A DNA stretch of 37,159 nt, taken from assembly GCA_024860865.1 (NCBI GenBank), contig JACRDV010000029.1:1-37159 (forward strand), read 5' to 3'. The notes below the pieces were generated by a model, which saw only the letters and a program-made list of their open reading frames with translations, had not been told where the DNA came from and did not search any database. Below, in pieces: positions 4,028 to 31,653 of the stretch; positions within the stretch are counted from its first letter, which is position 1, and every line of letters starts with the position of its first letter. This stretch comes from Methanobacteriota archaeon. Lineage in GTDB: Archaea; JACRDV01. The position numbers were made by a program, and so were the translations under genes.

Positions 4028-5461
4028 CTAACCAGTTTTTCTTCCTACAAGGATTGCTACTACAATTGCACTTATTGCTCCTATTACTATAGCTGCTATT
4101 GACAATGGATATGCTGCCGCAGCCTGTTTAACCCTTGTTTCTATTGCTGCCCCCTCTCTGATTTTTTTAGCCTCATCTTTTATGAAGTTTAGAGATGTTT
4201 TCATTGGCGCCCAGCCATACCAGTGCATATAGTCAGGGTTCATGTGAAAAGCTCCTTGGAAAGTTCTCATTCGGTGCTCTAGAAACATTCCGTAGAGTTC
4301 TTGTTCAATGGGAGATGGAGCTTCGTAAAATGTTAGCAAATCTGGATAGGCATATGCATAGTCCTTTGGCTTGGAAAGCAATCCATCTTTGTATAATTCA
4401 GCAACAGTGGATATGCCTTCAGCCATCAGAGCATCAGCTTGTTTTATGATAGCGTCTGCATTCTCTAGATTTTGCTTAGCATAATTTGCTGAATGGCATT
4501 GACCACAAACATTTAGCATAGCCTCCCTTTGGGCCTGCCATTCTTCTGCCGTTAATCTCGCAACCTTTCCAGCTTTAACCACATCCAGCCTTGCTGTAGG
4601 TTTCCCATCTGGGTCCAATACACCTGTTCCCTTAAGAATTATTGTTCTATAAGACATCCACTCCGAATCAGGTTCTGGTAACCTCACAGCTAAAAAGCCC
4701 CAAGATGTGATTACTTTATGGTTGCCATTTGTCATATGGCAGATTTGGCATGTCGGTGCTGGATATGGATTTTCGCTGAGGTGTTTGTTCCAGTCCCATG
4801 TATCACCTTGCATTGCATAAATTACACCGTGCTTAGAGGTCGAATACATTTCCCATTGAGGGTGATTAAAACCCATGTGGCATGGCAAACATGCTTCAGG
4901 TCTTCTTGCTTCAGCCGTGGAGAATTTATGTCTGGTATGACATGAATCGCAACTACCCATGCCATATCTATACTCTGGTATTCCTGTTTTATTCTTTGAT
5001 CCCATTTTGTGGCATCCTCCACAGCCTTTTTGACCTCCTATTATTGGCTTAGCTTGATGTGTAGTCCCCGGCATTGCATTCATGGCAATCCATGCGAGCG
5101 CGTGCTTACCCTCATTGAATTCTACTACCTTTGGAGCATGGCAAGCATCGCATGTATCTGGCGTCGGCATCTTTGCCTTTGTAAAATCAGCAGCTGAGGT
5201 ATGTTCTGACCCGTGGCAATTTTCACAGCTAATTTGCGATAAACCTCCAGCCATCTTGCTAGCTGTTGGATTCTGTATCCCAGGTGTTCCCATTGCGCCA
5301 CTTTGAAAGGCATCAACAATTTTTGGAGTTATTGTTTTATGGCATGCTATACATGGCGACTCTTCTGCAACTACTTGGGTAGTAATTCCTATTAAGAATA
5401 AAAGTGTCGTTAAAAACGTTACAATTAAAATTTTATTTGAAATTATATTTTCACTTCTCAT
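4028..5461 (-). CDS. octahaem c-type cytochrome, hydroxylamine-oxidoreductase (HAO)-like family, N-terminal signal and C-terminal TM anchor
   Basis: Eight CxxCH motifs (CIACH, CENCH, CDACH, CGGCH, CDSCH, CLPCH, CQICH, CGQCH). HAO-like spacers (CHMGFNHPQWEMYSTSKHG; FHMNPDYMHWYGW). Hydrophobic N- and C-termini. Confidence 0.85.
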   Translation of the reverse strand: MRSENIISNKILIVTFLTTLLFLIGITTQVVAEESPCIACHKTITPKIVDAFQSGAMGTPGIQNPTASKMAGGLSQISCENCHGSEHTSAADFTKAKMPTPDTCDACHAPKVVEFNEGKHALAWIAMNAMPGTTHQAKPIIGGQKGCGGCHKMGSKNKTGIPEYRYGMGSCDSCHTRHKFSTAEARRPEACLPCHMGFNHPQWEMYSTSKHGVIYAMQGDTWDWNKHLSENPYPAPTCQICHMTNGNHKVITSWGFLAVRLPEPDSEWMSYRTIILKGTGVLDPDGKPTARLDVVKAGKVARLTAEEWQAQREAMLNVCGQCHSANYAKQNLENADAIIKQADALMAEGISTVAELYKDGLLSKPKDYAYAYPDLLTFYEAPSPIEQELYGMFLEHRMRTFQGAFHMNPDYMHWYGWAPMKTSLNFIKDEAKKIREGAAIETRVKQAAAAYPLSIAAIVIGAISAIVVAILVGRKTG

Positions 5462-11235: not shown

Positions 11236-11478
11236 TCACTTCTTTAGTTTTTCTTCAATAATTTTTTTGTATTTCTCTTCGCCAATACACTTTTTTGCAT
11301 ATGAACACCATTCTATGCAAGAAGGAACCGATTCTCTAAACACTATTGTTCCGCATTTGTCACATTTGGCTTTCATTTCATCTGCGAATATTTCTACTTC
11401 TTCACCACAATTGGTACATTTCACAATTACAATAGTTGGTCTTCTTATTGCTGCGCTTCCAGGGCATTTAACTTCCAT
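11236..11478 (-). CDS. 80-aa cysteine-rich zinc-ribbon protein
   Basis: CPGS..KCTNCGEEVEIFADE..KCDKCG..SCIEWCSYAKKCIG. This pattern is recalled from conserved small proteins of anaerobes, often found near redox-stress genes. Confidence 0.7.
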   Translation of the reverse strand: MEVKCPGSAAIRRPTIVIVKCTNCGEEVEIFADEMKAKCDKCGTIVFRESVPSCIEWCSYAKKCIGEEKYKKIIEEKLKK

Positions 11479-11589: not shown

Positions 11590-12222
11590 ATGATGGAAGC
11601 TATTCTATCTCTTAAAATCCCGAAAATTTGGATGACTGAAATTTCACAAAAGTATCCAGCAATAGTTAAAATCTTAGAGCGCAAGCCATTTGGGAAGTAT
11701 GGAGTTCAAGATTTAGTCGAAATTAGTGCAACTGACGAGTATCTTGGTAAAATAATAGAGGATATTCGAAGTAATCCATTAGTTTATAAAGTCGATATTA
11801 GCACAACTGATAAAAGTAAAGCACTAGGGGTAGTTTCAACCGTTAAATGTGTGGCGTGCAGGGCTTTAGTGGGTTCAAATTGTTTTCTTATTTCGTCTAC
11901 TTCCAAAAAAGATGGAAAAGTTGAATGGAAATTAATTTTTAGTGAAAAGGATTCGTTACGACGGTTAATTATAAAGTTAGAGAAATCTCATTGTGAAGTC
12001 AAGCTAACTAAACTTTCAAGTATTGATGACAAAGAAGCATTAACATCAAGGCAAGGAGAGATCATTCAAATAGCATTTCAAAAGGGATATTTTGACTATC
12101 CTAAGAAAATAACCATAAGAGATTTAGCAAAAATATTTAATATTTCAATATCAACGCTTTCTGAGATTCTAAGAAGAGGACAACGAAAAATTTTGATAGA
12201 ATATTTTAGGGAGCATAAATAA
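11590..12222 (+). CDS. HTH_10 (bacterio-opsin-activator-type) transcriptional regulator
   Basis: C-terminal LTSRQGEIIQIAFQKGYFDYPKKITIRDLAKIFNISISTLSEILRRGQRKIL is the classic HTH_10 signature. Confidence 0.85.
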   Translation: MMEAILSLKIPKIWMTEISQKYPAIVKILERKPFGKYGVQDLVEISATDEYLGKIIEDIRSNPLVYKVDISTTDKSKALGVVSTVKCVACRALVGSNCFLISSTSKKDGKVEWKLIFSEKDSLRRLIIKLEKSHCEVKLTKLSSIDDKEALTSRQGEIIQIAFQKGYFDYPKKITIRDLAKIFNISISTLSEILRRGQRKILIEYFREHK

Positions 12223-12229
12223 TACAAAA

Positions 12230-12243
12230 CCGAACATGTTCGG
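12230..12243. promoter_or_regulatory. perfect 14-bp palindrome CCGAACATGTTCGG between the regulator gene and the DUF59 operon
   Basis: Self-complementary 7+7 bp, 8 nt after the stop of the HTH_10 gene and about 55 nt upstream of the ATG at 12299. Operator or short hairpin. Confidence 0.4.
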
Positions 12244-12298: not shown

Positions 12299-12580
12299 AT
12301 GGTCACAGAAAATCAAGTAATTGAAAAATTAAAAGAGGTAATGGATCCTCACACGAATACTAGCGTCTATGATATGAATTTAATTTCAGGGTTAAAAATA
12401 AACAATGGTGATGTAAGTTTGACTTTCACACCTTCAAGTCCGTTTTGCCCGTTAGGGATTCAACTTGCAGTGGCAATTAAGCGAAAGTTAATGGAACTTA
12501 AAGAAGTTAAAAAAGTAGACGTGAATGTTGTAGGGCACGTTCAAAAAGACCAATTAAATGAACTTTTGAAGAAAATTTAA
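12299..12580 (+). CDS. DUF59 (MIP18/SufT-like Fe-S assembly) domain protein
   Basis: VMDPHTNTSVYDMNLISGLKI..VSLTFTPSSPFCP fits the DUF59 pattern (V.DPe...i..lGlv..i...v.v...lT...CP). Confidence 0.8.
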   Translation: MVTENQVIEKLKEVMDPHTNTSVYDMNLISGLKINNGDVSLTFTPSSPFCPLGIQLAVAIKRKLMELKEVKKVDVNVVGHVQKDQLNELLKKI

Positions 12581-12587
12581 TGCAAAG

Positions 12588-12839
12588 GTGGAAATTTTGA
12601 GCAGTGAGATTTTGACTCTGGATGTTCGAGGACTACCGCACCCAGAGAGGCCACCTTTAATTATGAGCAAGCTCTTGCAACTCAAAGAAGGTGAAACACT
12701 TACTTTAATTGTTGAAATTGAACCTCTTCCAATGTATACGTTACTAAAACAACATGGATACGAATGTAAAGGAGAACAATTACCAAATGGTTCGTGGAGA
12801 GTTTTAATAAAAAAGTCAAAGCTAGGGGAGAAAAAATGA
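12588..12839 (+). CDS. DUF2249 (TusA/SirA-like fold) protein
   Basis: LDVRGLPHPERPPLIMSKLLQLKEGETLTLIVEIEPLPMYTLLKQHGYE fits the DUF2249 pattern. GTG start. The stop overlaps the next ATG (ATGA). Confidence 0.75.
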   Translation: MEILSSEILTLDVRGLPHPERPPLIMSKLLQLKEGETLTLIVEIEPLPMYTLLKQHGYECKGEQLPNGSWRVLIKKSKLGEKK

Positions 12840-13021
12840 AAATAACTAAAGATATGACTGTTGGAGAAGTAATAAGAAAATTCCCAAAAACTAGAGAGAT
12901 TCTTTTAAAACATGGCTTGTGCGATTGTTGTGGAGGTCATCTCAGCCTCGAAGGTGGAGCGAAAATTCACAAAGCCAATGTTAGTGCATTAGTGAAAGAG
13001 CTCAATTCTTTTATCGAGTAA
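12836..13021 (+). CDS. DUF1858 (hybrid-cluster-protein-associated redox disulfide / ScdA_N-like) protein
   Basis: MKITKDMTVGEVIRKFPKTREILLKHGLCDCCGG. GGGGAG RBS lies before the ATG at 12836; the ORF-track start at 12794 is an upstream in-frame extension. Confidence 0.8.
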   Translation: MKITKDMTVGEVIRKFPKTREILLKHGLCDCCGGHLSLEGGAKIHKANVSALVKELNSFIE

Positions 13022-13035
13022 TTTTTTAACAATGG

Positions 13036-14292
13036 ATGTTTTTAAAAATGATCCAGAACTTATCTGTGAGATTTTTTGCTACATCTATTGTATATTTCTT
13101 AATTACTGTTACGTTTGGAATACTGATTGCACTAGGAAAAATAGGCTTTTTTGACAATCCAATTGCTGCGCATTCCCATATTGCTCTCATCGGTTGGATC
13201 ACAATTACAATAATGGGAGCTGAGTATCAAATAGTTCCAACGTTATTAGGTAAGGAACTTTACAACAGAAGGTTAGCCGAAATTCAGTTTTGGCTTATAA
13301 ATATTGGGACAATAGGCATGTTTTTGGGATTTTTATCGGGAAATGGTTTATTAATATTTATATTCGGTGTAGTGGTGGCAATAGCCGCATATCTTTTTGC
13401 TTTCATTATTTTTAAAATGTTAGAAAAGAAAAAAATGATTTTAACGATGAAATTTTTTGTTGTAGCTATTCTATATGTGCTTGTAACGGTTACACTTGGA
13501 TTGCTCATAGCTACAAATGCCAAATATCTAATTTACTATGCTTTTCCTGAAGTTAAGATTCTTGCAACACAAACTCATCTTGCATTAGTTGGTTGGGTTT
13601 CTATGACTATTATGGGCGCAATGTATCAAATGTTGCCCATGCTTTCATTAAAAAAACTTTATAGCGAGAAGTTGGGAGAAGCTCAGTTCTGGGTTGCAAA
13701 TGTTGGAATCATTGGAATGACTTTAGGTTTTTTAACTGGAGAGATACGGCTGGTAGCTATATTTGGCACAATTACTGCAATAGCTTCTTACTTGTTCGCC
13801 TATAATATGTTTCAAACACTAAGAACTAAATCTGAAACAAAAATGAAAGTGGATATTTCTGTTAAATTTTTTGTTAATGCTGTCATTTACTTTTTAATAG
13901 TAGTTACTTTCGGAGTACTGATAGCTACTGATGCGACAAATTCGATTTTTAAATTAATACCAGGAGCTAAAATTATTGCTTCTCACGCCCATCTTGGGTT
14001 GATAGGTTGGGTTTCAATAACTATAGTCGGAGGCATGTATCATCTAGTGCCGATGCTTGTATGGATGGAGCGATACGGTCCAAAGTTAGGAATAGAAAAA
14101 GTACCTACAATTAAGGAGCTCTTCAGCGAAAAGTTAGCAAATGTTCAGCTCTTACTTTTTAACGTTGGATTAGTTGGAATGTTTTTAGGTTTTATGATGG
14201 CAGAGATGAGACTAGCAGCGATATCTGGAGCTATCATTGCCATAGCCTCATACATATTTGCTTACGATATGTTAAAAACGATTAAAGGATAA
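13036..14292 (+). CDS. 12-TM membrane protein built from three tandem 4-TM repeats, each with a haem-copper-oxidase subunit I helix-X-like motif
   Basis: Repeats begin at aa 10, 137 and 275 (SVRFF../TMKFF../SVKFF..). Motifs: HSHIALIGWITITIMGAEYQIVP, QTHLALVGWVSMTIMGAMYQMLP, HAHLGLIGWVSITIVGGMYHLVP. Compare bovine COX1 [23 protein letters not shown], which has identical HxH, IMG and P spacing. Confidence 0.85.
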   Translation: MFLKMIQNLSVRFFATSIVYFLITVTFGILIALGKIGFFDNPIAAHSHIALIGWITITIMGAEYQIVPTLLGKELYNRRLAEIQFWLINIGTIGMFLGFLSGNGLLIFIFGVVVAIAAYLFAFIIFKMLEKKKMILTMKFFVVAILYVLVTVTLGLLIATNAKYLIYYAFPEVKILATQTHLALVGWVSMTIMGAMYQMLPMLSLKKLYSEKLGEAQFWVANVGIIGMTLGFLTGEIRLVAIFGTITAIASYLFAYNMFQTLRTKSETKMKVDISVKFFVNAVIYFLIVVTFGVLIATDATNSIFKLIPGAKIIASHAHLGLIGWVSITIVGGMYHLVPMLVWMERYGPKLGIEKVPTIKELFSEKLANVQLLLFNVGLVGMFLGFMMAEMRLAAISGAIIAIASYIFAYDMLKTIKG

Positions 14293-15054: not shown

Positions 15055-15858
15055 ATGCCTGAAATCGGAAAACGCATTCGTTTAGAGCGGATTCTCAACC
15101 GTGACAGCCACAAAATATTAATTGTCCCAATGGACCATGGCGTGACAGTAGGGCCTATTAAAGGAATAATAAACGTGGCTGAGATGGTTAACAAAGTGGC
15201 TGAAGGTGGAGCTACCGCAGTTCTATTACACAAAGGCATAATTCAAGCGGGCCATCGTGGATACGGGAGAGATATTGGCCTTATAATTCACGTTTCGGCC
15301 TCAACAGCTCTCGGCCCCGACCCTAATTACAAAATTCAAGCAACTTCGATCAAAGAAGCCATCAAACTTGGAGCAGATGCAGTTTCAATCCACGTTAATG
15401 TTGGCGCAAATGATGAGCCTGAAATGTTAAGAACTCTTGGATCGGTTGCTGAACAATGTGCTGAATGGGGGATGCCGTTGCTCGCGATGATGTATCCAAG
15501 AGGACCAAAAGTTAAGAGCGAACATGCTGTAGAGTTCGTAAAACATGCAGCTAGGGTCGGAGCGGAGTTAGGAGCAGACATTATAAAAACAAATTACACA
15601 GGTAGCGTTGAATCATTTAAAGAAGTGGTCGACGGCTCTCCAGTTCCAGTTGTAATTGCAGGTGGACCGAAGATGGCGAATGATCTAGAACTTTTAACTA
15701 CGGTGAAAGGTGCTATAGATGCTGGTGCCAAGGGTGTGGCATTTGGAAGAAATATTTTCCAACATTCTAATCCGACATTAATTACGAAAGCTATTGGTAT
15801 GATTGTACATGAAAATGCTGATGTAGAAGAAGCAACTAAAATACTGAGCAAACATTAA
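15055..15858 (+). CDS. aroA': 2-amino-3,7-dideoxy-D-threo-hept-6-ulosonate (ADH) synthase, class I aldolase family (archaeal shikimate step 1)
   Basis: GKRIRLERI....[14 protein letters not shown] and the DeoC/FbaB-type aldolase layout. Directly upstream of DHQ synthase II. Confidence 0.9.
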
Positions 15859-15900
15859 GACACTAAAAGGTTAATTTTAATTTTTATTTTAGGTTTTTCT

Positions 15901-16998
15901 ATGAAAACTTTTTGGGTAGCAGCAAATCAAAATATACCATGGGAAACGCGAAAAAAATTCGTCACTACTGCCATAGAGTCTGGAGCTGAGGCTGTCTTAA
16001 TAAATTCTAATGAAGTTGAAAAAGTAAGAGAATTAGGTAAAATATTTGTAACAGCCCCACCTTCTGAAAAAAATGTTGCGGATATTGTAGTAACAACTGA
16101 AATAGATACAAGATTAATTCAGGATCTCAAAGAAAAGGGATTTCAGGCAGCCATCAGTGTAATAATCGATGAAAAAACAAAAGAGCAACCTGCTATTGCT
16201 GCTGCAAAAACAGGAGCAAACTATGTGATTATATCAGCTAGAGACTGGAAAATTATACCGCTTGAAAATTTAGTAGCTGAATTACAAAAAACGAACACAA
16301 AAATTGTAGCCGAAGCCAAGACTGCAGAAGAGGGACGAACTTTATTTGGCACTTTAGAGAAAGGAGTAGATGTTATTTTAATTGATCCTTCTCGATCAAG
16401 CTTAGATGAAATCAAAAAACTACACTATGTGGTTGAAGGCCTTAAGTCCGAAAAAATCACTTTAGCACCGGCAAAAATTACTAAAATTAAGCCCGTAGGC
16501 ATGGGAGACCGCGTTTGCATTGATACATGTTCGCTTCTTAGAGTTGGAGAAGGTGTACTCGTTGGATCAAAATCTACTGGATTGTTTTTAATTCATAGCG
16601 AAACAGTTGAAACACCATACGTGGAAACAAGACCATTTAGAGTTAATGCTGGCCCAGTACATGCTTATGTAAAAGTAATAGGCGGCAAAACTAAGTATTT
16701 AAGTGAACTAAAAGCTGGAGATGAAATATTAATTGTAGATAAAAGTGGCGAAACTAGGACTGCTATTGTTGGAAGAGTAAAAATCGAGAGACGCCCGTTG
16801 ATGTTAATTGAAGCAGAACATAAAGGAAATAAAATTAAAACATTAGTACAAAATGCTGAGACTATTAGGCTAGTAAATAAAGAAGGGCAACCAATTTCTG
16901 TTGTTAATTTAAAGCCCGGCGATGAGATATTAGCTGCAATTGAAGAAGAAGCAAGACATTTTGGTATAAAAATTCACGAAACTATTATTGAGAGATAG
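15901..16998 (+). CDS. aroB': 3-dehydroquinate synthase II (archaeal type)
   Basis: MGDRVCIDTCSLL..GEGVLVGSKSTGLFLIHSETVETPYVETRPFRVNAGPVHAY is the DHQS-II signature region. Confidence 0.9.
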   Translation: MKTFWVAANQNIPWETRKKFVTTAIESGAEAVLINSNEVEKVRELGKIFVTAPPSEKNVADIVVTTEIDTRLIQDLKEKGFQAAISVIIDEKTKEQPAIAAAKTGANYVIISARDWKIIPLENLVAELQKTNTKIVAEAKTAEEGRTLFGTLEKGVDVILIDPSRSSLDEIKKLHYVVEGLKSEKITLAPAKITKIKPVGMGDRVCIDTCSLLRVGEGVLVGSKSTGLFLIHSETVETPYVETRPFRVNAGPVHAYVKVIGGKTKYLSELKAGDEILIVDKSGETRTAIVGRVKIERRPLMLIEAEHKGNKIKTLVQNAETIRLVNKEGQPISVVNLKPGDEILAAIEEEARHFGIKIHETIIER

Positions 16999-17001
16999 AT
17001 T

Positions 17002-17751
17002 ATGAGATTATCAGCAAAGAAACCAATTGAGATTGGGAAAGTTTTAGTTGGGAGAGATATTCGAATATGTGCCTCTATCATGGGTAATGATGAAAGCGAA
17101 GTTCTAGAACTAATTAATAGGGCAAATGCAGCTGATTTAATTGAAATTAGATTAGATGGATTTAATAAAATCAATCCAGCTATAACTAAACGTGTTCTAC
17201 GAACTGCTAAAATACGCAGTGGCTACCCAATAATAGCAACAAATAGAATGGAGGCTGACGGTGGAAGCTTTCCAGGTTCTGAGAGAGATAGGATTGAAAA
17301 TTTAATTGCAGCCCTTGAAATTGCTGATGCAATTGACATAGAACTTCGCTCTCAACTTGAGTTAAGAGATGAACTAATTGAAAAAGCAAAAGAGAAACGA
17401 ATTCCAACAATAGTTTCTTACCATAATTTTGAGAGGATGCCGCCGAAAAATGAACTATTGCAAATTCTCGATGAAGAAGTTCAAGCAGGGGCGAGTATTG
17501 CGAAAATTGCAGTTATGACAAAGTCATTAGAAAATATTTTAACTGTGCTTGATACAACTTTGCTTGCCAAGGCTAGAGTTGAAATTCCAGTAAGTATAAT
17601 TGCAATGGGTGAAATTGCAAAACATGCTAGAGTAATTACCCCAATTTATGGATCAGATTTGATCTATGCAGCGGTTGATGAAGGAAGAAGTACAGCACCT
17701 GGTCAATTAACGGTTCAAGAGGTACGTGAAGCTCTAGGGATTTTGACCTAA
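17002..17751 (+). CDS. aroD: 3-dehydroquinate dehydratase, type I
   Basis: ICASIMG..ADLIEIRLD..IIATNR..SYHNFE..AKIAVM pattern, plus operon position. Confidence 0.9.
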   Translation: MRLSAKKPIEIGKVLVGRDIRICASIMGNDESEVLELINRANAADLIEIRLDGFNKINPAITKRVLRTAKIRSGYPIIATNRMEADGGSFPGSERDRIENLIAALEIADAIDIELRSQLELRDELIEKAKEKRIPTIVSYHNFERMPPKNELLQILDEEVQAGASIAKIAVMTKSLENILTVLDTTLLAKARVEIPVSIIAMGEIAKHARVITPIYGSDLIYAAVDEGRSTAPGQLTVQEVREALGILT

Positions 17752-17752
17752 T

Positions 17753-18619
17753 GTGGTGGTGACTTTGGAAATTTTAACCACCACCAAAGTTTTTGCTTTA
17801 ATTGGAAGCCCAATAACACATTCGCTTTCGCCCCGGATGCACAATGCTGTCTTTAGGCAACTTAACTTAGACTGTGTATATTTAGCCTTTGAAGTTAAAA
17901 AAGAAAATCTAAAGCAAGCTTTTGAAGGGGCTAAAGCATTGGGGATAAAAGGACTAAATGTTACTATTCCACATAAAATTGCTGTTGTTCAATATCTTGA
18001 TGAATTAGATGAATCAGCCCAGTTAACCGGTTCTGTTAACACAATTAAATTCGATGAGAAGGCAGTTGGATTTAATACAGATGGCATTGGGGCTATTCGT
18101 GCACTTGAAGAAGAATCTAATGAAACTGTTCGCGGAAAAAAAGTTGTATTAATTGGAGCAGGTGGAGCAGCTAGAGCAATTGCGTACCAACTCGCACTTA
18201 AGAAGGCGCATGATATAGTTATTGCAAATAGAACTGTAAAAAAGGCCCAAGAACTTGCTGAAGAAGTTGAAACTAAACTAAAAGTAAAAATTAGAGCTTG
18301 TGGAACAAACAAAGGAACGCTCAAGATAGAACTTGAGAGTGCAAAGTTCCTTATTAATGCAACTTCGGTTGGGATGTTTCCAAATGTTAATGAAACACTA
18401 GTTACAGCTGATGTTATGCATTCTGATTTAATTGTTAATGATATAGTCTATAATCCAATTGAAACTCTATTATTAAAAGAAGCAAAGAAAGCAGGAGCTA
18501 GAACAGTAAGTGGTATCGGTATGTTTGTTTATCAAGGAGCAGAGTCTCTTAGGATTTGGTTAGGAATTGACCCTCCAATTGAAACAATGAGACAAGTTGC
18601 TTTAGAAGTTTTAGGATAA
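17753..18619 (+). CDS. aroE: shikimate 5-dehydrogenase
   Basis: FALIGSPITHSLSPRMHNAVF, NVTIPHK, NTDGIG, GAGGAARA. GTG start abuts the aroD stop. Confidence 0.92.
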   Translation: MVVTLEILTTTKVFALIGSPITHSLSPRMHNAVFRQLNLDCVYLAFEVKKENLKQAFEGAKALGIKGLNVTIPHKIAVVQYLDELDESAQLTGSVNTIKFDEKAVGFNTDGIGAIRALEEESNETVRGKKVVLIGAGGAARAIAYQLALKKAHDIVIANRTVKKAQELAEEVETKLKVKIRACGTNKGTLKIELESAKFLINATSVGMFPNVNETLVTADVMHSDLIVNDIVYNPIETLLLKEAKKAGARTVSGIGMFVYQGAESLRIWLGIDPPIETMRQVALEVLG

Positions 18620-18658
18620 TATTTTACTTATTTTTCCACTATTTAGTGGTGGATAAAA

Positions 18659-18931
18659 ATGAGAATGAGAACAACCAAAGCAAAAGTAGATGAAAAATGG
18701 CGAGTTTTAATTCCTAAAGAAGTGCGAGAAGTACTAGGTATTACTCCTAACACTACGATTCAGTTTATTGAAGAAGAAGGTAAATGGTATGTAAAACATG
18801 TTGGAAAAGACCCTCTCGATGAATTAGTAGAACGACTGGAAAAAGGCAAGATAAAACGTGTAGGTAAGCCATTATTGAAAAATGGAAATGAAGCCATTAA
18901 AGTAATCCGACAGATGTGGGGCGAAAAATAG
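18659..18931 (+). CDS. SpoVT/AbrB-type DNA-binding protein (antitoxin-like), no partner toxin
   Basis: KVDEKWRVLIPKEVREVLGITPNTTIQFIEEEGKWYV fits the AbrB swapped-hairpin pattern. Sits between aroE and tyrA. Confidence 0.7.
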   Translation: MRMRTTKAKVDEKWRVLIPKEVREVLGITPNTTIQFIEEEGKWYVKHVGKDPLDELVERLEKGKIKRVGKPLLKNGNEAIKVIRQMWGEK

Positions 18932-19015
18932 TGGAAATAGCAAATGACCTAGAAGATATATCAGAATCAAGCGTATGATCTAACTTTACTCGGTTTACGG
19001 ACAGAAGGAAAAAAA

Positions 19016-20338
19016 ATGAAGATTACAATAATTGGTGGAACTGGACAAATGGGCAGTTGGTTCGCTCATTTTTTTAAAACAAAAGGATTCGATGTAACAA
19101 TTTCCGGCCCAAATACTAAGACTGGCGATGAATTAGCTAAGAAACTTAATATAAAGTATACTCTTGACAACAAAGCTGCAGCAAAAGATGCTGATATTGT
19201 TCTAGTTTCAGTTCCAATTGAGAAAACTGTTGATGTAATAGCTGAAGTAGCTCCTCAAATGAAGACTGGTGCACTCTTGACAGATACTACTTCAGTTAAA
19301 GTTGATCCAGTTAAAGCTATGCAGAAATTCGCTGCTCCAGGTGTTGAAATAATTGGAATGCACCCAATGTTTGCTCCGAGATTTCCAAGTTTAAAGGGTC
19401 AAGTGATTATTCTTACACCAGTAAATCATCCACCTTGGCTAGAGAAGATTAAAGATTTTTTTGAAAAAGAAAATGCAAGAGTTTTTATTGCAACCCCAGA
19501 AATGCATGATGAAATGATGGCAATCATTCAAGGATTAACTCATTTCGTATATATTGCAACTGCAAGCACGCTAAAAAGATTAGGAATTGATATTAAAGAA
19601 TCGCGCAAGCTTATGAGCCCTATCTACGAGCTTACTCTTGATATCATTGCGCGAATTGCGGGTCAAAATCCACGCTTATATGCTGGGATCCAAATGTACA
19701 ACCCAAAAGTGAATGAAATTCACAAAGCATTCATTGAAGAATGCCTTGGATTGCAAAGAGTAATTGAAAGCAAAGATGTGCAAGCATTTGTTAAAATAAT
19801 GAGTTCTGCAGCAAAACATATGGGTGATGTTGAAGAAGCGATGAGAAAATCTGACAAAGCAGTTAGAGCGCTGAATAGAGAACTTGAAGAGCTGACAAAG
19901 AGAATTGGAAAAGAAGTTGCATTGCGGCACATTTACTCTGAAAGTATCCACGTTGGAATTGTTGAAAAAGTTGAGCCCGAAAAAGTTATATTAAAGACAC
20001 AAAGCGGCAGATTAGCTGAATTTAAGATTAGCAATATTGAACTTTTAAGTGATGAAGCGCTTCTAGAATTGAAAAAAGAAAAATTCACAAAAATTACAAG
20101 AGATTTTTCTGTAGTTTTGCCTAAGCAAACAGATCCAAAAGTAATTCAACAAATAGTAGCTAACTCAAATGATAAAATTATTTCAGCAAAAATTTTAGAT
20201 ATTTATGAAGGTGCTCAGATTCCAAGTGATAAAAAAAGCGTTACCATCAGAGTTGAAGCTTTGAGTAATGCCGATCCAAAAATGTTAGAGAATGCTATAA
20301 TAAATTTGCTAAAAGGAATTGGCGGACAAATTAGATAG
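19016..20338 (+). CDS. tyrA: prephenate dehydrogenase fused to a C-terminal FDX-ACB-like (ferredoxin-fold) domain
   Basis: N-terminal MKITIIGGTGQMGSWFA Rossmann and PDH core. The last ~90 aa (RDFSVVLPKQTD..ILDIYEGAQIPSDKKSVTIRVEA..GGQIR) follow the PheRS-beta FDX-ACB pattern RDla.vv...lfDvY.G..ip.gkKSla.rl....ga.lR. Confidence 0.88.
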   Translation: MKITIIGGTGQMGSWFAHFFKTKGFDVTISGPNTKTGDELAKKLNIKYTLDNKAAAKDADIVLVSVPIEKTVDVIAEVAPQMKTGALLTDTTSVKVDPVKAMQKFAAPGVEIIGMHPMFAPRFPSLKGQVIILTPVNHPPWLEKIKDFFEKENARVFIATPEMHDEMMAIIQGLTHFVYIATASTLKRLGIDIKESRKLMSPIYELTLDIIARIAGQNPRLYAGIQMYNPKVNEIHKAFIEECLGLQRVIESKDVQAFVKIMSSAAKHMGDVEEAMRKSDKAVRALNRELEELTKRIGKEVALRHIYSESIHVGIVEKVEPEKVILKTQSGRLAEFKISNIELLSDEALLELKKEKFTKITRDFSVVLPKQTDPKVIQQIVANSNDKIISAKILDIYEGAQIPSDKKSVTIRVEALSNADPKMLENAIINLLKGIGGQIR

Positions 20339-20572
20339 TGTATTGTCTCTTTCCTTTTTCTAGCAATTCAACGCGTGCTCCGAATCGTCAATTCTACTCG
20401 ATATATTAGCCATGAGAGTCACCGGAAGTATTCGCGATTCATCCATGAGCTTAAAGCAAATGGTATTCCCGCGAAATTATCAATAAAACTCGTTATGATT
20501 GGTCAGAAGTGTATCTCAACTCATGCTCAGTCTAAAAAAGCCTTTCGAAACTGAAAATAAAAAGCTACAAAA

Positions 20573-21472
20573 TTATCTTCTCAGCAAACCACGCACTTTT
20601 TCTCGAGAATAAGAAACTACCGTTCTAAGCGCCCTGACAGGAATACTTGAGAGTCTAAAAGGTTTCATAATGCTTTCTAAAGGTTCTCCTACTGTCTCTA
20701 TATTTTCCAGTTTTCCAATACCGAGACCAAGCTCATCTGCTAATTTTATATGTTTAATACTTAAAGGATCAATACCCATAACTGCTGCACCTACAGCATC
20801 TGCGGCCACGATATCATTGCTCGCGATAATAACACCAACTTTAACTGGATTGCCCGAAATTTCGCTTAACTCCCCTCCTATATAACCATCGATAACTGTT
20901 ATTCTTGGTTTTATATAGCGAGCGAGGTCTACTATTTTCTCATGAAGATGAGTGTGCATGTTTCCCTTAGGCAGCACAAATCCCATTAAATTCTTCATTC
21001 CAAGTGTTACTCCCGCATCTCCGTGAACTTTTAATTTTGGAACAGAAATAATGCAATTATTTTCAAAAAAAGCCTTTGCCACGTTTACTCTCTTCAGCGC
21101 CAGTGCATTTGGAATGTCAACTTCAGCTCTTTTGTCTTTGTTTAGATTAACAAGCTTAATTTTTTTGTTATTAGCAATTTCAGTTAAACCAACCAACTTA
21201 AAAGCATCATCTGCAGTTGATTCACTCCAACCGCCTTCTCCAATTGTTATATTATCAATTCCTAGCTGTTGGAGATAATCGATTATCGCTTCGACAACTT
21301 TGGGATCAGTTGTTATGCCAGTTTCAGGTCTTTTCGCTAAAATATAATTTGGCTTGATCAAAACTTTATCATTATCTGATAGCAATTTTGATGCTCTTAT
21401 CAAGTTTAATGCTTTAAGAGTTGCATTGTATATGTTTTCGTCTTTAATAATGGCGACTGTTGCTTTATACAT
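20573..21472 (-). CDS. DUF362 domain protein
   Basis: VAIIK........LIKPN........TDPKVVEAIIDYL...G...ITIGEG pattern typical of DUF362. Confidence 0.7.
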   Translation of the reverse strand: MYKATVAIIKDENIYNATLKALNLIRASKLLSDNDKVLIKPNYILAKRPETGITTDPKVVEAIIDYLQQLGIDNITIGEGGWSESTADDAFKLVGLTEIANNKKIKLVNLNKDKRAEVDIPNALALKRVNVAKAFFENNCIISVPKLKVHGDAGVTLGMKNLMGFVLPKGNMHTHLHEKIVDLARYIKPRITVIDGYIGGELSEISGNPVKVGVIIASNDIVAADAVGAAVMGIDPLSIKHIKLADELGLGIGKLENIETVGEPLESIMKPFRLSSIPVRALRTVVSYSREKVRGLLRR

Positions 21473-21821
21473 GTTATTATCACAAAATAAATAACTGCTT
21501 TATTTTCGAAATTAAACGTTCTCTTTAGCTATACTAACTTTTTTAAACAACGTGAAGTTTACCAATTCTTTTTGAAAAACTTAAAACGGAGAGCTTATAA
21601 CCTTATCGCCTCTATACCGTGCGATAATATCGTCGTCCACCCGCTGTTGAAAAGGACAAAAGCTTTCTTTTTTTAAATCTATGCAAAGAATTTTCCTTGT
21701 AATGGAACTATTGCAACGTATGCCTTTTCTGCTAACCACAACTCTTGCAGTAATAGTAACTTTTTAATAGAAGAAGTGATAAAAGAAGTGAAAAAAGTAA
21801 ATAAATAAGAAGTGTTAATAA

Positions 21822-22082
21822 ATGAAGATAAAATGGTCTAATCACGCCAAAGAAGAGTGTAAAAAGGAGGGTGTTTCTGAAGCTGATGCAAACCAACTTA
21901 TCGAACACGGAGTAGAGGTAATAGATGATGTATTTGAAAAGAAATATCGCATAATTGGATATGTTGGTGCTAAATATTATGTGGCTATCGTGACAAAAAG
22001 TAAAGAAAAACTCAAAGTAACTACATTCTATAAAGCTAGCGATTATGATATTTGGTATTTCAAAAATCAAAGGAGGAAATAA
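21822..22082 (+). CDS. DUF4258-like putative toxin
   Basis: MKIKWSNHAKEECKKEGVSEADANQLIEHG...VTTFY fits DUF4258 (i.is.HA...m.eRgIs.eev...TvY). Immediately followed by a Zn-ribbon/AbrB gene. Confidence 0.6.
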   Translation: MKIKWSNHAKEECKKEGVSEADANQLIEHGVEVIDDVFEKKYRIIGYVGAKYYVAIVTKSKEKLKVTTFYKASDYDIWYFKNQRRK

Positions 22083-22084
22083 AG

Positions 22085-22399
22085 ATGGAGTGCCTTAGAT
22101 GTGATGGAAAGTTAGAAAAGAAGTTAGCAACTATTGAAGCTGGAGGCATTTCTTTTACTGATGAGTATTTTGTTTGCAGTAAATGCGGAAAGATGTACCC
22201 AACTAAGGATCAGATTAAAAAAATGTATGAGAGTTCAAGTCTTCGAAAGCTCTCTTTTGAGAGAAAGATCTCAATGAGCGGCCGTACTTATGTTATTAGA
22301 GTCCCTCAGACTCTTGAAAAATTATATGAAATCCAAGTTGGAAAAAAAGTTAAAATTGCTCCTTTAGATGCAAAAAGAATGTTAGTTGAATTTGAATAA
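22085..22399 (+). CDS. YgiT/MqsA-type zinc-ribbon plus SpoVT/AbrB-like putative antitoxin
   Basis: CLRCDGKL..FVCSKCGK zinc ribbon, then RTYVIRVPQTLEKLYEIQVGKKVKIAPLD. AGGAGG lies 7 nt upstream of the ATG at 22085; the track start at 22052 overlaps the toxin. Confidence 0.6.
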   Translation: MECLRCDGKLEKKLATIEAGGISFTDEYFVCSKCGKMYPTKDQIKKMYESSSLRKLSFERKISMSGRTYVIRVPQTLEKLYEIQVGKKVKIAPLDAKRMLVEFE

Positions 22400-22463
22400 T
22401 TTTTCTTTTTTACTTTCTTCTAAGGAGCAGCCAATATAGTTTTTGATTTATCTTGTTAATGCT

Positions 22464-23609
22464 TTAATATTCTGCTTTTGGATACGATCCTAAAACTTTT
22501 AGAAAAGCAACCTTCTTTTCAAGCGATCTAAGAGCTTCTTCAATAATTGGCTCCCTAACATAACCTTCCATATCTACAAAGAAAAAATAATCGCCAAGCG
22601 CTCGTTTAGATGGCCTTGATTCAATTTTTGTTAAATTGATATTGCGGGCGGCAAATTCCCCTAAGGCTCGATATAGCTCTCCAGGTCTGTTTGATTTTAA
22701 TCCAAATACAACCGAAGTTTTGCTGTTTTTAACCCGTTTTTGCCCAGTTTTTGAAAGAACAATAAATCTAGTAAAATTTTCACCATCTTGGATACTCTCT
22801 GCTAGTGTTTTAAGGCCGTACAATCTGGCTGCTGTTTTTGAGCAAATAGCAGCTATGTCCTTAGTAAAACCTTCTGCAACAGACTTTGCCGCCTCAGCAG
22901 TGCTCGGACTTTGCTTTAATTCTGCACGCGGAAATCTACCTTTTAGGAATTGGTGAGTTTGCGCCAATGCCTGTGGATGTGAAATTATAGTTTTTATATT
23001 TTCGAATTTAGCATTTGGCTTAGCCGCTAAGCAGTGGATGATAGGTAAAACTATTTCGCCATAAATTTTAGCATTAGTTTCGAGCAGAGAATCGAGCGTA
23101 ATTCCAATTGATCCCTCAAGGGAATTTTCAACGGCAACTACTCCATGCTCAACTTTTTCTTCTTCAACGGCATTAAATATTTCAGGTATAGTAAGAAAGG
23201 ACTTTAACTCAATTGTATCAGTGAAATAATACCTCGCTGCTTCTTCAGTAAAGGTTCCTCGTGGCCCAAGAATTGCAACTAATAACTTTTTTCTCTTTGT
23301 TTTTACCCTTGGTTTATATTGTCGATGAAGAAGATGCTCTTTGCGGCGTGCATAATTTATCAAAACTCGCGTAAGAGATTGCGCGAATTCTGGATCAATC
23401 CCAAGTTGTTTGGCATGCTCGATTGCTTTATCAATTATTTCAAGTTCGCGTTTTTCATCATAAACTTCCATTCTCAGCTTTGTTTTTATTTTTTTAATAT
23501 CATATAAAAGCTGAATTCTCTGCGCGATTAACTCTCGAATTTGAAAATCAATGGAATCAATTTTTCTTCTAATTTCTTCAAGCTTTTGGCTGAGTTTTTT
23601 ATTTTTCAA
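22464..23609 (-). CDS. pheA: bifunctional chorismate mutase / prephenate dehydratase with ACT domain
   Basis: N-terminal CM helix (LEEIRRKIDSIDFQIRELIAQR), PDT (VAILGPRGTFTEEAA), ACT (TSVVFGL..RPGELYRALGEFAARNINLTKIESRP). Confidence 0.92.
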   Translation of the reverse strand: MKNKKLSQKLEEIRRKIDSIDFQIRELIAQRIQLLYDIKKIKTKLRMEVYDEKRELEIIDKAIEHAKQLGIDPEFAQSLTRVLINYARRKEHLLHRQYKPRVKTKRKKLLVAILGPRGTFTEEAARYYFTDTIELKSFLTIPEIFNAVEEEKVEHGVVAVENSLEGSIGITLDSLLETNAKIYGEIVLPIIHCLAAKPNAKFENIKTIISHPQALAQTHQFLKGRFPRAELKQSPSTAEAAKSVAEGFTKDIAAICSKTAARLYGLKTLAESIQDGENFTRFIVLSKTGQKRVKNSKTSVVFGLKSNRPGELYRALGEFAARNINLTKIESRPSKRALGDYFFFVDMEGYVREPIIEEALRSLEKKVAFLKVLGSYPKAEY

Positions 23610-24498
23610 GACGAATACCTCTAGCTATCTTGTTATTTATGCCTGCCCACATTGTATACCCAGGGCGTTCCCTCCAAAGCCTCCTAATTAAACAATTTTC
23701 ACTAGGTCCAATCAACACTGGATCAAATATTGCAACATGAGCAGGACCTGTACCTGAGATACCAGCAGCTTCTGCCCCTACATCTAGTGCTTCAATTGTG
23801 ATAGTAGGATCATACCCAAATATTGCTGAATAAACCAATCCATTAAGAGTAAGAGCATTAAAAATATCCCCTTTAAGGGCAGCTTTGAATGCTAATTCAA
23901 CTTGCGGAGCAACTAGCCTGATCTTTCCAACATCAACGCTTGCAGTATATACTTTTTTTCGCGGGATGTAAATTTTAATACTTAAAGTTGGATCCATCTT
24001 AACTCGTTTTAAAATTTTTCTTTTATTATTATCTGTAATTACTCCTCCACCAAAATAAGATGCACATGCATCATCAAACGCACCGGTAATCGTAACCCCT
24101 GCTCCAATCGCTGCATCAACTCCAATATTTATTGCTTCCATATGTGATAACTTTTCACCAAGCGCAGCTGCAGTAGCAAGAACTGTAGCATTTGCAGCAA
24201 CGCTGCTGCTCTTTAACCCCCGTGCAATTGGAATGTTCCCTTGTGTTTTAATTGCAGCACCATAATCTTTTTCAGCTTTAAAGTGCTCAAGCGTTTTTTT
24301 TGCACAAAGCTCAATTAAAGTCGTGCTCTCTCTTGGAGCTCCAATAATTTTGCCCCTATATATCCTTGGCTCATTAATTAATTCAACAGTTGACTGAATG
24401 AACAAATCAAGTCCAAATGCAGCACCTTTTCCAGTGGCTATGGCATTGACAATAGTGGCTGCACCATGGGCAATTCCTAAACCTTTCACTATATCCAC
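23599..24498 (-). CDS. aroK: archaeal GHMP-kinase-type shikimate kinase
   Basis: GAATIVNAIATGKGAAFGLDL and GLKSSSVAANA (GHMP motif II). Sits between aroC and pheA. Confidence 0.85.
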   Translation of the reverse strand: MDIVKGLGIAHGAATIVNAIATGKGAAFGLDLFIQSTVELINEPRIYRGKIIGAPRESTTLIELCAKKTLEHFKAEKDYGAAIKTQGNIPIARGLKSSSVAANATVLATAAALGEKLSHMEAINIGVDAAIGAGVTITGAFDDACASYFGGGVITDNNKRKILKRVKMDPTLSIKIYIPRKKVYTASVDVGKIRLVAPQVELAFKAALKGDIFNALTLNGLVYSAIFGYDPTITIEALDVGAEAAGISGTGPAHVAIFDPVLIGPSENCLIRRLWRERPGYTMWAGINNKIARGIRLEK

Positions 24499-24734
24499 CT
24501 GACTTTTTTAGCTTCTATTATTTGCTTCAAGATTATCGGTCGATCAACATTACAAAAATAAACTAAACCATCAATAGCTGTTAGATAGAGATGCTTTTTT
24601 CTTAGAATACCTACCAGAGAGTGAACTACTATACAATTTTCTCTCAAACTGATTAATTTTTGAAATTCCTCAGATGACAATTCAATTCTCGTTGTAACAA
24701 CAGGCGCAGACGTAACAGCTCGCACATTGGTCAC
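24489..24734 (-). CDS. 81-aa protein of unknown function, translationally coupled between aroC and shikimate kinase
   Basis: Its ATG overlaps the aroC TGA (ATGA at 24731-24734). Its 3' end overlaps the kinase start by 10 nt. No motif recognised. Confidence 0.6.
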   Translation of the reverse strand: MTNVRAVTSAPVVTTRIELSSEEFQKLISLRENCIVVHSLVGILRKKHLYLTAIDGLVYFCNVDRPIILKQIIEAKKVRWI

Positions 24735-25852
24735 TTTAATGATGAACTTTCCTCAAATTTTGTCAAGTGGACATAACCAGCTCTCATCATATGGTCAACT
24801 AGAACTAATGCCAACATGGCCTCTGCAACAGGTACCACTCGGGGACATATCGATGGATCATGTTTTCCTTTAACTTCAATCTTAGCCTCTTTCATTGTTT
24901 TAAGGTTAATTGTGGTTTGAGGTAGTGCGATGGAAGAAGTCGGTTTAACTACTAATCTGGCAATTATTGGCATTCCGTTTGAGATCCCACCAAGAATGCC
25001 GCCAGCATTATTAGTTGTCGTTATAATTTTGCCAGTTTTAGGATCGATTGCAAATTGATCGTTAGCCTCAGAACCTCTCATTTTCGCTAATCTAAAGCCT
25101 GCTCCAATCTCAACTCCTTTGACTGCTCCAATGCTCATTAAAGCCTTTGCAATATCTGCATCGAGTTTATCGAATACAGGGTCCCCTAATCCTGCTGGGC
25201 AATTTAAAGCAATAACTTCAACAATTCCACCTACACTGTCTCCTTCTTCCTTTGCTCTTTTTATTTTTTGAACCATTTTTTCAGCAACATTTGAATCTGC
25301 GCATCGAATTGGATTTTTATCAGCGTTTCGAATTGCGTCGAAAGTCACTTTTTCGGGATCAATCCCAATTCCTGCAACTTCAATAACATGCCCAAGAATA
25401 TCAATTCCAAATTTTTTCAGTATTTTCTTTGCAATTGCACCTGCTGCAACTCTGGCAACTGTTTCTCTACCACTTGCCCTCCCTCCGCCTCTGTAATCAA
25501 CATGACCATACTTTAACCAATAAGTTAAGTCAGCATGCCCTGGTCTTGGCAAATCTTTAATTATTTCGTAAGGTTCATCTTCAAAGGCTATGTTTCGAAC
25601 AATCATTGTAATTGGAGTCCCTGTTGTCTTTCCGTTAAATACTCCAGATAAAATCTCAACTTTATCAAGCTCTGCTCGCGGACTAACTATTTCACTTACT
25701 CCGGGTCGCCTTCGGTTGAGTTCTTTTTGAACATCACTTTCTGAAAGCTCTAGTCCAGCCGGAACTCCATCAATTATAACACCGACCGCCACGTTATGTG
25801 ATTCGCCAAAAGTTGTTACTCGAAAAATTTGGCCAAACGAGTTTCCTGGCAT
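24731..25852 (-). CDS. aroC: chorismate synthase
   Basis: [31 protein letters not shown]-like [12 protein letters not shown]. Confidence 0.93.
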
Positions 25853-30717: not shown

Positions 30718-30762
30718 TTTTTATCACTAAGGAATGTCCCTTTTTAATAATAGTAGTTGTCT

Positions 30763-31653
30763 TTAGGAGTGCTCAATTATCTCTAAAAACGCATCAAAAA
30801 TAGGAGTATCTGATGTTATAGAATAGAAGTCAGCTCCTACATCATCGCAAACTTTTTTTATTGCGCCAGCATGCTCATCTAGTATTTTTTTATAATTAGC
30901 TTTAAAAGCAGGGCTAATATAAGTACGTCTCATTTCAGAAGTTTCGGAATCGTATAACTTTGTATCACCTTCTACTCCTTCTAAGTTTTTTTCTTTAGGA
31001 TCTAAAACTTGGATTAACACTAAATCATGGGATCCTCTCGCGATCTTGTATATGCCAGTATCTAGAGAAGACAAAGGCTCTAAAAAGTCTGAAATTATTA
31101 TTACAAGAGACCTTGATCTAATTATCTTGCTATATTGATCTGCGCACACATTTAACCTTGTTTTTCCCTCAAGAGATGTGCTATTTAACAGCTCCACCGC
31201 ATCTAAAAAGTGTCTTTTACCTCTTCTTGGTTGCATTATGTCCTTTAACTCATCTGAGTATGTTGAGAGCGCAAACCTTTCATTTTCATTAGTCACTAAG
31301 TATGCAAACCCAGCACCGATCATAGCGGCATAATCAAATTTTTTTATCTCTCCAAACTCCATGCTTTTGCTGCAATCAACTAAAATATGGGTTGTGAGAT
31401 TCTTCTCTTCTTCAAATCTGCGAATGTATAACTTCTCTGTTCTGGAATAAACCTTCCAAGCTATTGATTTTATATCATCTCCAGGAAAATATTCTCTATA
31501 ATCGACAGTATCGATGCCTTTTCCTTCCTTTATAGATACTCTTGCGCCAGCGTATATGCTTATTACTCTTTTTTTGACCATAAAACTGAAGCGATCTAAC
31601 TCCTTACAGAAATCTATGTCTATCAATTTATCACAATTTTTGAATGATTTCAT
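30763..31653 (-). CDS. DUF58 protein (vWA-like, MoxR partner)
   Basis: YREYFPGDDIKSIAWKVYSRTEKLYIRRFEEE is the DUF58 signature. Overlaps the MoxR 3' end by 23 nt. Confidence 0.88.
   Translation of the reverse strand: MKSFKNCDKLIDIDFCKELDRFSFMVKKRVISIYAGARVSIKEGKGIDTVDYREYFPGDDIKSIAWKVYSRTEKLYIRRFEEEKNLTTHILVDCSKSMEFGEIKKFDYAAMIGAGFAYLVTNENERFALSTYSDELKDIMQPRRGKRHFLDAVELLNSTSLEGKTRLNVCADQYSKIIRSRSLVIIISDFLEPLSSLDTGIYKIARGSHDLVLIQVLDPKEKNLEGVEGDTKLYDSETSEMRRTYISPAFKANYKKILDEHAGAIKKVCDDVGADFYSITSDTPIFDAFLEIIEHS

Follow-up and report, generated by a model that had tools for sequence, protein, structure and literature searches.

A three-unit haem-copper oxidase homologue in an archaeal operon with a probable denitrification-type operator

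We analysed a 37,159-nucleotide stretch of DNA from a Methanobacteriota archaeon (NCBI GenBank assembly GCA_024860865.1, contig JACRDV010000029.1; hereafter the window), in which a gene at positions 13036–14292 of the forward strand encodes a membrane protein of 418 amino acids with 12 predicted transmembrane (TM) helices. From its open reading frame (ORF), its match to the Pfam family COX1, an AlphaFold2 model and Foldseek searches, we identify the product as a three-unit member of the haem-copper oxidase (HCO)-homology (HCOH) proteins, a class already described by bioinformatics in 2014, to which it is a new and misannotated addition. On balance, we favour the reading that this non-canonical protein binds haem b at sites between its units and serves in a NarO-type-regulated module against nitric oxide (NO) and nitrosative damage to iron centres. 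New here are a symmetric archaeal clade with six His, a conserved five-gene module, a shared operator, ancient repeats held alike by selection and an abundance of single-unit relatives of about 135 amino acids.

The protein is built from three repeats, or evolutionary units, that span amino acids 1–136 (13036–13443), 137–274 (13444–13857) and 275–418 (13858–14289), all on the forward strand. Their pairwise identities are 49%, 49% and 53% over 121–127 columns, and their local alignment scores of 271–337, compared with 35–36 ± 6 for shuffled sequences, correspond to z values of 38–49. This is far beyond chance, and bears out the claim of a first-pass annotation, made from the sequence alone, that the three repeats can be aligned along their whole length; the helix-2 strings that it gave occur in the protein exactly as quoted. 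The motif in repeat 1 is HxH, formed by H46 (codon 13171–13173) and H48 (13177–13179). Repeat 2 has QxH, formed by Q179 (CAA, 13570–13572) and H181 (13576–13578), and repeat 3 has HxH, formed by H317 (13984–13986) and H319 (13990–13992), as well as a further His, H336 (14041–14043). Repeat 3 also has an insertion of its own between helices 2 and 3 (amino acids 342–358, VWMERYGPKLGIEKVPT; 14059–14109, forward strand), which is a gap in repeats 1 and 2 and in which the alignment shows W343, G352, E354 and P357 to be kept family-wide. From HCO topology and the positive-inside rule, we infer that this insertion lies on the cytoplasmic side.

COX1 (PF00115) is the only Pfam match of the whole protein, at 115.3 bits (E = 4e-33; gathering score, 34.8) and in three stretches. 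Scanned singly, the repeats score 51.2, 46.6 and 36.8 bits, each above the gathering score, and all three match the same region of the profile, positions ~308–401, which corresponds to TM9–12 and includes helix X. A phmmer search of solved structures returned solely cbb3 CcoN and NorB; repeat 1 pairs with CcoN residues 306–404, which puts H46 and H48 opposite the HxH of TM10. When 22 close homologues are combined into a profile, it matches CcoN residues 16–367 colinearly (E ~1e-12). Here H46, the first motif His in unit 1, corresponds to H60, the haem-b ligand of TM2; H181, the second in unit 2, corresponds to H207, the CuB ligand of TM6; and H317 and H319 of unit 3 correspond to H345 and H347, the His-x-His of TM10. 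H336, in ‘MYHLVP’, is the counterpart of the His in ‘MYHLIP’ of CcoN.

The AlphaFold2 model, built with 88 sequences, has twelve long helices, a pLDDT (predicted local distance difference test score) of 94.9 and a pTM (predicted template-modelling score) of 0.94. Its best Foldseek matches in the PDB are CcoN chains (E ~1e-10 to 1e-11, the best 4e-11; query template-modelling score (TMq), 0.78–0.81), followed by NorB and then by subunit I of the aa3, bo3 and ba3 enzymes. There are 71 PDB matches at E ≤ 0.001, the best 50 of which are all entries for HCOs or NO reductases (NORs). The HCO homology and subunit-I fold of the protein are thus established. The kinship with HCOs that the first-pass annotation had proposed, and the likeness it saw between the second helix of each repeat and helix X, are upheld by the COX1 match to TM9–12, the placing of the HxH of repeat 1 on that of CcoN TM10 and the resemblance of the model to the subunit-I fold; the family is not a characterised transporter.

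CcoN (PDB 3mk7, 9g6b and 8smr) is therefore the nearest protein of solved structure in both sequence and fold, with a colinear alignment over 12 helices and equivalents of its TM2 His, TM6 His and TM10 HxH all present in the window protein. The helix-10 motif ‘GW...G..MYHL.P’ is common to CcoN and unit 3. The two nevertheless differ in their internal symmetry: a profile of the repeats readily recognises just TM9–12 of CcoN (41 bits, compared with 10–16 bits for the other units), whereas the units of the window protein are about 50% identical to one another. The window protein also differs in lacking the HH of TM7, the cross-linked Tyr and CcoO or CcoP partners, and its family adds a His pair, H48/H179, at positions where CcoN has Asn and Tyr.

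The catalytic site of an oxidase is incomplete in this protein. It has six His in total (46, 48, 181, 317, 319 and 336), that is, the five motif His correctly counted in the first-pass annotation as candidate ligands, and H336. No HH pair occurs anywhere in the 418 residues, and the ‘HH’ of CcoN TM7 sits opposite ‘TLGFLTG’. The cross-linked active-site Tyr of HCOs lies on TM7 in the C family and on TM6 in the A and B families; we found no Tyr in the aligned helix-7 segment and none beside H181. Four of the six canonical HCO His positions are present, but the CuB/FeB ligand set is incomplete, with an equivalent of the TM6 His (H181) and neither of the TM7 His. Because the TM7 CuB/FeB His–His and the catalytic Tyr are missing, the protein is not a canonical O2 or NO reductase. 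The alignment in this way supports the earlier statement that, with no CuB-type HH motif or cross-linked Tyr to be seen, an oxidase or NOR function is not implied.

Public annotation tells a different story. The identical protein (P0001) carries the public name ‘cbb3-type cytochrome c oxidase subunit I [Euryarchaeota archaeon]’, and most homologues are named likewise. This name is wrong, because the TM7 HH and the Tyr are lacking and the NCBIfam ccoN equivalog TIGR00780 reaches 84.3 bits where the cut-off is 583.15. Domains of CcoO, CcoP, CoxB or NorC were not found in Pfam scans of the large ORFs of the window or in the related archaeal loci. We accordingly reject a true cbb3 oxidase or NOR, given the loss of two of the three CuB/FeB ligands and the Tyr and an equivalog score far below the cut-off. 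The error matters in practice: with this protein and more than 1,000 relatives misnamed as cbb3 subunit I, metabolic reconstructions of anaerobes could falsely infer aerobic respiration. The public record also starts the gene 10 codons downstream of the ATG at 13036, giving 408 amino acids.

Proteins of this kind were reportedly set out in 2014 by Pei, Li, Kinch and Grishin, who are said to have described HCOH proteins as homologues of HCO and NOR subunit I without the full set of catalytic His. In their account, HCOH proteins reportedly have one or three four-helix ‘evolutionary units’, each most like TM9–12, the three-unit forms having 12 TM helices, and trimers of single units were proposed. 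From genomic context they reportedly tied the class to denitrification and to the detoxification of NO, and named DUF2249 as a domain that accompanies it; two conserved His, by which one haem could be bound, are said to be retained in most three-unit members. The window protein is alike in its three TM9–12-like four-helix units and incomplete catalytic His, in its proximity to DUF2249, in the proximity of its Ignavibacteria relatives to NorB, hemerythrin and Crp/Fnr genes, and in its denitrification-type operator. The archaeal clade to which it belongs differs in having six His, compared with mostly two. By 2014 the Ferroglobus relatives had been sequenced and the Hydrothermarchaeota had not. 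Because the HCOH concept was published in 2014, the novelty of the idea in the first-pass annotation was overrated.

A second comparison is with NnrS, which resides in the membrane, contains haem and copper and contributes to resistance against NO (PMC3345576). NnrS (PF05940), from denitrifiers and Vibrio cholerae, is likewise a 12-TM, non-catalytic protein related to HCO subunit I with a link to the NO response, and three distant members of the family of the window protein (P0033, P0081 and P0082) carry a precomputed NnrS match beside COX1. The DUF59, DUF2249 and DUF1858 partners and the archaeal regulator of the window protein are unlike the context of NnrS. We rejected membership of NnrS itself, as the window protein gave no match to the NnrS profile at E ≤ 1.

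The motif His are strongly conserved. Across 99 aligned sequences (the window protein and 98 homologues), the best-kept His are H48, H179 and H181, each in at least 90%, and G61, G194 and G332 on the HxH helices are invariant. In the 44 closest relatives, which are archaeal, each of the six HxH positions is occupied by His in at least 40. The window protein is the sole member of this closest group with Gln at 179, a position that is His in 95 of the 99 sequences, and the proposed ligands are kept more strongly in the 44 archaeal relatives than in the protein from which they were first noticed. H48 and H179 form the best-kept His pair of the family, at the very positions of Asn and Tyr in CcoN. 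The Ignavibacteria group has the pattern xxH / HxH / YxY, and in the single-unit family HxH is invariant (115 of 115). Codon 179 (CAA) may mean that one predicted cofactor site has truly been lost, or it may be a consensus error in a metagenome-assembled genome (MAG); a change at its third position would give His.

Two His at positions i and i+2 of a helix face opposite sides, and the pseudo-threefold axis of HCOs is ringed by TM2, TM6 and TM10. Given this geometry and the CcoN alignment, the His pair of each unit would face two neighbouring pores, and each pore would receive two His from adjacent units. H46 with H319 would form the counterpart of the low-spin haem site of oxidases, H317 with H181 the counterpart of the high-spin haem/CuB pocket, and H48 with residue 179 a third site, which is left empty, with no cofactor, in oxidases. 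As far as the sequence can tell, b-type haems are most likely to be bound at these inter-unit His sites. Two haems are predicted for the window protein, rather than three, because residue 179 is Gln; three would be expected in its close relatives. Use of haem by the organism is plausible, because the window also contains a multihaem cytochrome c gene.

The HCOH gene is the last of an operon on the forward strand with the order DUF59–DUF2249–DUF1858–HCOH. The first gene (12299–12580) encodes a small DUF59/FeS_assembly_P protein (PF01883, E = 3e-15), and the second (12588–12839) a small DUF2249 protein, DrpA-like and with a TusA-like fold (PF10006, E = 1e-15). The third (12836–13021) encodes a small DUF1858/ScdA_N protein (PF08984, PF04405 and TIGR03980), a redox-disulfide domain of the kind associated with hybrid-cluster proteins. 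Mechanical gene calling places the start of this third gene at a GTG at 12794 (12794–13021), overlapping the DUF2249 gene by 46 nucleotides. The ATG at 12836 (MKITKDM...) is the likelier start, because the overlap with the DUF2249 stop is then just 4 nucleotides and the length fits that of homologues (61–67 amino acids). Upstream of the operon, and on the same strand, lies a gene for a transcription regulator of 210 amino acids of the HTH_10 (‘bacterio-opsin activator’) type (11590–12222; PF04967, E = 1.5e-19). Divergent from it is a gene on the reverse strand (11236–11478) for a Cys-rich zinc-ribbon protein of 80 amino acids, with 59% identity to the product of L006:4530–4769.

This neighbourhood is conserved across distant lineages. 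Of about 30 non-redundant loci with three-unit genes, approximately 28 have DUF59 next to the HCOH gene and approximately 28 have a DUF1858 or DUF2249 protein beside it, a context that spans Hydrothermarchaeota, Archaeoglobi, Verrucomicrobia and a Bacillaceae isolate. The DUF1858 gene adjoins the HCOH gene in most archaeal loci, and DUF2249 occupies the same operon slot in the Archaeoglobi loci and in L018. In related archaea (L002, L006, L016, L017, L020–L025 and L029), the zinc-ribbon gene lies within the operon, between DUF59 and DUF1858. The Ignavibacteria operon is longer: it begins with a Crp/Fnr regulator, DUF2249, a DrpB-like protein (DUF1858 and two DUF2249 domains), HCOH and DUF59, and continues with a single-unit HCOH, Fer4, Pyr_redox_2, cupin, hemerythrin, DUF6448 and NorB. 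Its single-unit gene (L004:6579-7034) encodes 151 amino acids with HTH at the HxH position and lies two genes downstream of the three-unit gene (L004:5001-6266), with whose product it may co-assemble or act in sequence. A deltaproteobacterial single-unit gene lies between NifU and the genes for DUF1858, ScdA_N and DUF59-Mrp.

Several of these partners have been tied to nitrogen-oxide respiration elsewhere. DUF2249 has been connected with the HCO superfamily, and denitrifying conditions induce genes that encode it (PMC11218638). In Thermus, nitrate respiration depends on DrpA (DUF2249) and DrpB (DUF1858 and two DUF2249 domains), the latter of which is found partly at the membrane even though it has no TM segment (PMC6282519). 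A DUF1858 gene is also among the most strongly NnrR-dependent genes (PMC6710368).

A perfect palindrome, CGAACATGTTCG (12231–12242), stands in the promoter of the operon, 57 nucleotides before the start of the DUF59 gene. Nowhere else does the window match exactly the Haloferax denitrification motif CGAAYATDKTYG, which is reported from the nar, nirK, nor, nos and DUF2249 promoters of Haloferax mediterranei (PMC11218638). The same 12-mer stands at the promoter of the operon, or of the divergent regulator, in L001/L014, L002/L003, L006/L015, L013, L016, L020, L021 and L029, and is thus kept at eight other non-redundant loci; the expectation for the exact 12-mer by chance is ~0.03 in the 431 kb examined. 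With one mismatch, the palindrome is found in L018, and L001, L013 and L020 have such a version as a second site.

The HTH_10 regulator adjoins the operon in L001, L002, L006, L018, L020, L021 and L029, and has full-length homologues (26–31% identity) on haloarchaeal megaplasmids, one of which, encoded on Halogeometricum pHBOR02, has two DUF2249 genes on one side and a nor–nirK pair on the other. Judged from these patterns in sequence, the palindrome is probably the operator of the HTH_10 regulator, and the operon is probably regulated by nitrogen oxides or anoxia. The parallel with the haloarchaeal NarO-type regulon extends to an identical operator sequence, a regulator homologous over its full length and the presence of DUF2249 genes in the regulon. 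The haloarchaeal regulon drives nar, nirK, nor and nos, whereas here the motif precedes an HCOH operon. The conserved DUF59–DUF2249–DUF1858–HCOH module and its haloarchaeal-type operator together tie four domains of unknown function to one testable physiological response.

We hypothesize that the module would be switched on under anoxic conditions in the presence of nitrogen oxides, and that it would deal with NO or with nitrosative damage to iron centres. The membrane haem protein would bind or sense NO dissolved in the membrane, or pass electrons, and the small cytoplasmic partners would dock on the conserved loop of unit 3 (amino acids 342–358).

Several considerations weigh against this proposal. 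None of the nir, nor and nos genes is present in the 37,159-nucleotide window, and the DUF59, zinc-ribbon and ScdA_N partners fit the handling of iron or Fe–S clusters as well as they fit NO chemistry. The scheme of His pairing derives from alignment and textbook HCO geometry. The TM6 His of oxidases ligates copper rather than haem, and the second site is therefore not necessarily a bis-His haem. A conserved pair of Arg for the haem propionates was looked for and not found. The window protein itself has lost H179, one half of the His pair that is best conserved across the wider family. Finally, haems near the outer face would be too distant from cytoplasmic partners for direct electron transfer.

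Alternatively, the protein could be a cofactor-bearing sensor or anchor that detects NO, O2 or redox state and signals through the DUF1858 and DUF2249 proteins to the HTH_10 regulator, with no detoxifying or electron-transfer chemistry of its own. DrpA and DrpB have been proposed as signalling proteins of nitrate respiration, and the partial membrane binding of DrpB, which lacks a TM segment, would fit such a route (PMC6282519). The regulator and operator are kept beside the operon, and the conserved cytoplasmic loop, present in unit 3 alone, could be a docking site. A sensor, however, has no obvious need for DUF59 or the zinc-ribbon protein, and the Ignavibacteria operon runs into redox enzymes (Fer4, Pyr_redox_2, hemerythrin and NorB) in a manner that resembles a working detoxification pathway. 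This reading shares ground with the favoured one; we regard a pure sensor as rather unlikely.

Less probable still is a membrane protein for metal handling, whose HxH motifs would hold or pass ions of iron, copper or zinc in place of haem, so as to deliver or withdraw metal for the Fe–S and metal-binding partners of the operon. The DUF59/FeS_assembly_P, Cys-rich zinc-ribbon and ScdA_N proteins are of metal or Fe–S types, single-unit relatives sit beside the Fe–S carriers NifU and DUF59-Mrp, the equivalent of H181 ligates copper in oxidases and the propionate-binding Arg pair was not found. Against these points, the homology between the HxH helix and the haem-ligand helix of CcoN runs residue by residue and extends to the Gly and Pro packed against the porphyrins; the i/i+2 His lie on opposite sides of the helix and suit two haem pockets rather than a single ion site; and NnrS, the one relative studied biochemically in the literature consulted, contains haem (PMC3345576). 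A canonical cbb3 subunit I, or a divergent NOR, with a binuclear centre for the reduction of O2 or NO is close to untenable: the public name of the identical protein and most homologues, the sole Pfam match to COX1, the closeness of CcoN in sequence and fold and the four filled canonical His positions all speak for it, but helix 7 has no His and there is no HH, two of the three CuB/FeB ligands and the Tyr are missing, the ccoN equivalog reaches 84 bits against 583, genes for CcoO, CcoP, CoxB or NorC are absent nearby and all three repeats resemble TM9–12 rather than their colinear counterparts.

The family is broad. A word-indexed search yielded 135 homologues, nearly all of 390–445 amino acids with three repeats; where a source is named, it belongs to the Hydrothermarchaeota, the unclassified euryarchaeal MAGs, the Ignavibacteria or the Methylomirabilota. 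Further members came from species-representative genomes, in Archaeoglobi (Ferroglobus and Geoglobus), Verrucomicrobia, Dormiibacterota, Limnocylindrales and the cultured Aquibacillus kalidii. We also built a profile from the three window repeats; scored against 1.84 billion cluster representatives, it gave 1,565 proteins at E ≤ 1e-3, of which 46 reached E ≤ 1e-30; the best 150 of the 1,565 almost all match in three stretches. Among the top matches is P0217, a complete single-unit gene of 137 amino acids with 38–39% identity to repeats 1 and 2 of the window protein and 32% to repeat 3. Its family comprises at least 1,442 clusters of proteins of ~135 amino acids from Nitrospirota, Thermodesulfobacteriota and Deltaproteobacteria, and the Pfam family DUF2871 is related to it. 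These single-unit HCOH proteins share the DUF1858/ScdA_N/DUF59 neighbourhood of the window protein and the same misnaming as cbb3 subunit I. They are free-standing and would need to trimerise, whereas the units of the window protein are fused and diverging, as seen in Q179 and the loop insertion of unit 3. One protein, P0209 (862 amino acids), has six units; with five repeat matches, it apparently holds two 12-TM HCOH modules in one chain.

Within the archaeal clade, units are 40–62% identical to one another. In the window gene, residues that are identical between repeats share the same codon in 39–50% of cases, close to the 41–43% expected from codon usage, and the best stretch of DNA similarity between repeats is a single one of 99 nucleotides at 71% identity. 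We could therefore reject recent gene conversion in this gene (synonymous codon sharing, 0.39–0.50; expected, 0.41–0.43; little DNA identity). Because codon sharing is at expectation and DNA identity is low, the repeats are old, and their likeness is maintained by selection at the level of the protein. P0002 (L047:141-1373) has a different history: its repeats are 58–62% identical to one another, compared with ~50% to the query repeats in the same position, and its repeats 1 and 2 use the same codon at a rate of 0.59, where 0.37 is expected, which suggests later homogenisation or gene conversion between repeats in that lineage.

The evidence leans towards repeats that arose when a single-unit gene was fused or triplicated, rather than a relic of the triplication that gave rise to oxidases, because all three repeats are TM9–12-like, free-standing units are nearly as similar and a neighbour-joining tree of the repeat units is compatible with it. 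This tree, over 124 columns, is too poorly resolved to give the order of triplication and fusion. As a hint from the same rough tree, the three repeats of P0084 group with the single-unit family, suggesting an independent triplication, and those of P0002 too may be of separate descent or homogenised. Single-, three- and six-unit forms coexist, and some hosts are cultured (Ferroglobus, Geoglobus and Aquibacillus), making the family a tractable test of the long-held idea that the 12-helix oxidase core arose from a trimer of four-helix units.

A more far-reaching idea, which we put forward only tentatively, is that the six-His archaeal clade holds three b haems in near-perfect threefold arrangement, one of them in the pore that is empty in oxidases, and would be the closest living model of the ancestral trimer of HCOs. 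Together with DUF59, DUF2249, DUF1858 and the zinc-ribbon protein, it would then form an uncharacterised, NarO-type-regulated membrane module for NO and iron-centre stress that is common to archaea and bacteria.

Other genes of the window give some context for the organism, an archaeal MAG of ~35% GC. The multihaem cytochrome c gene lies on the reverse strand (4028–5461; 477 amino acids; PF13447, E = 9e-37) and suggests that the organism both makes and uses haem. A MoxR-type AAA_3 ATPase of 938 amino acids (31631–34447, reverse strand) is interrupted by an intein (Pfam Intein_splicing, approximately amino acids 199–783) and heads a BatA/VWA/DUF58 ‘aerotolerance’-like cluster (26509–31653), which includes DUF7408 and DUF7406 domains. 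Positions 15055–25852 and 35960–36955 hold a near-complete archaeal set for aromatic amino-acid biosynthesis, interspersed with unrelated genes; it comprises synthases of the ADH synthase and DHQ synthase II types, aroD, aroE, tyrA, pheA, a GHMP-type shikimate kinase, aroC and aroA, and is useful for placing the MAG.

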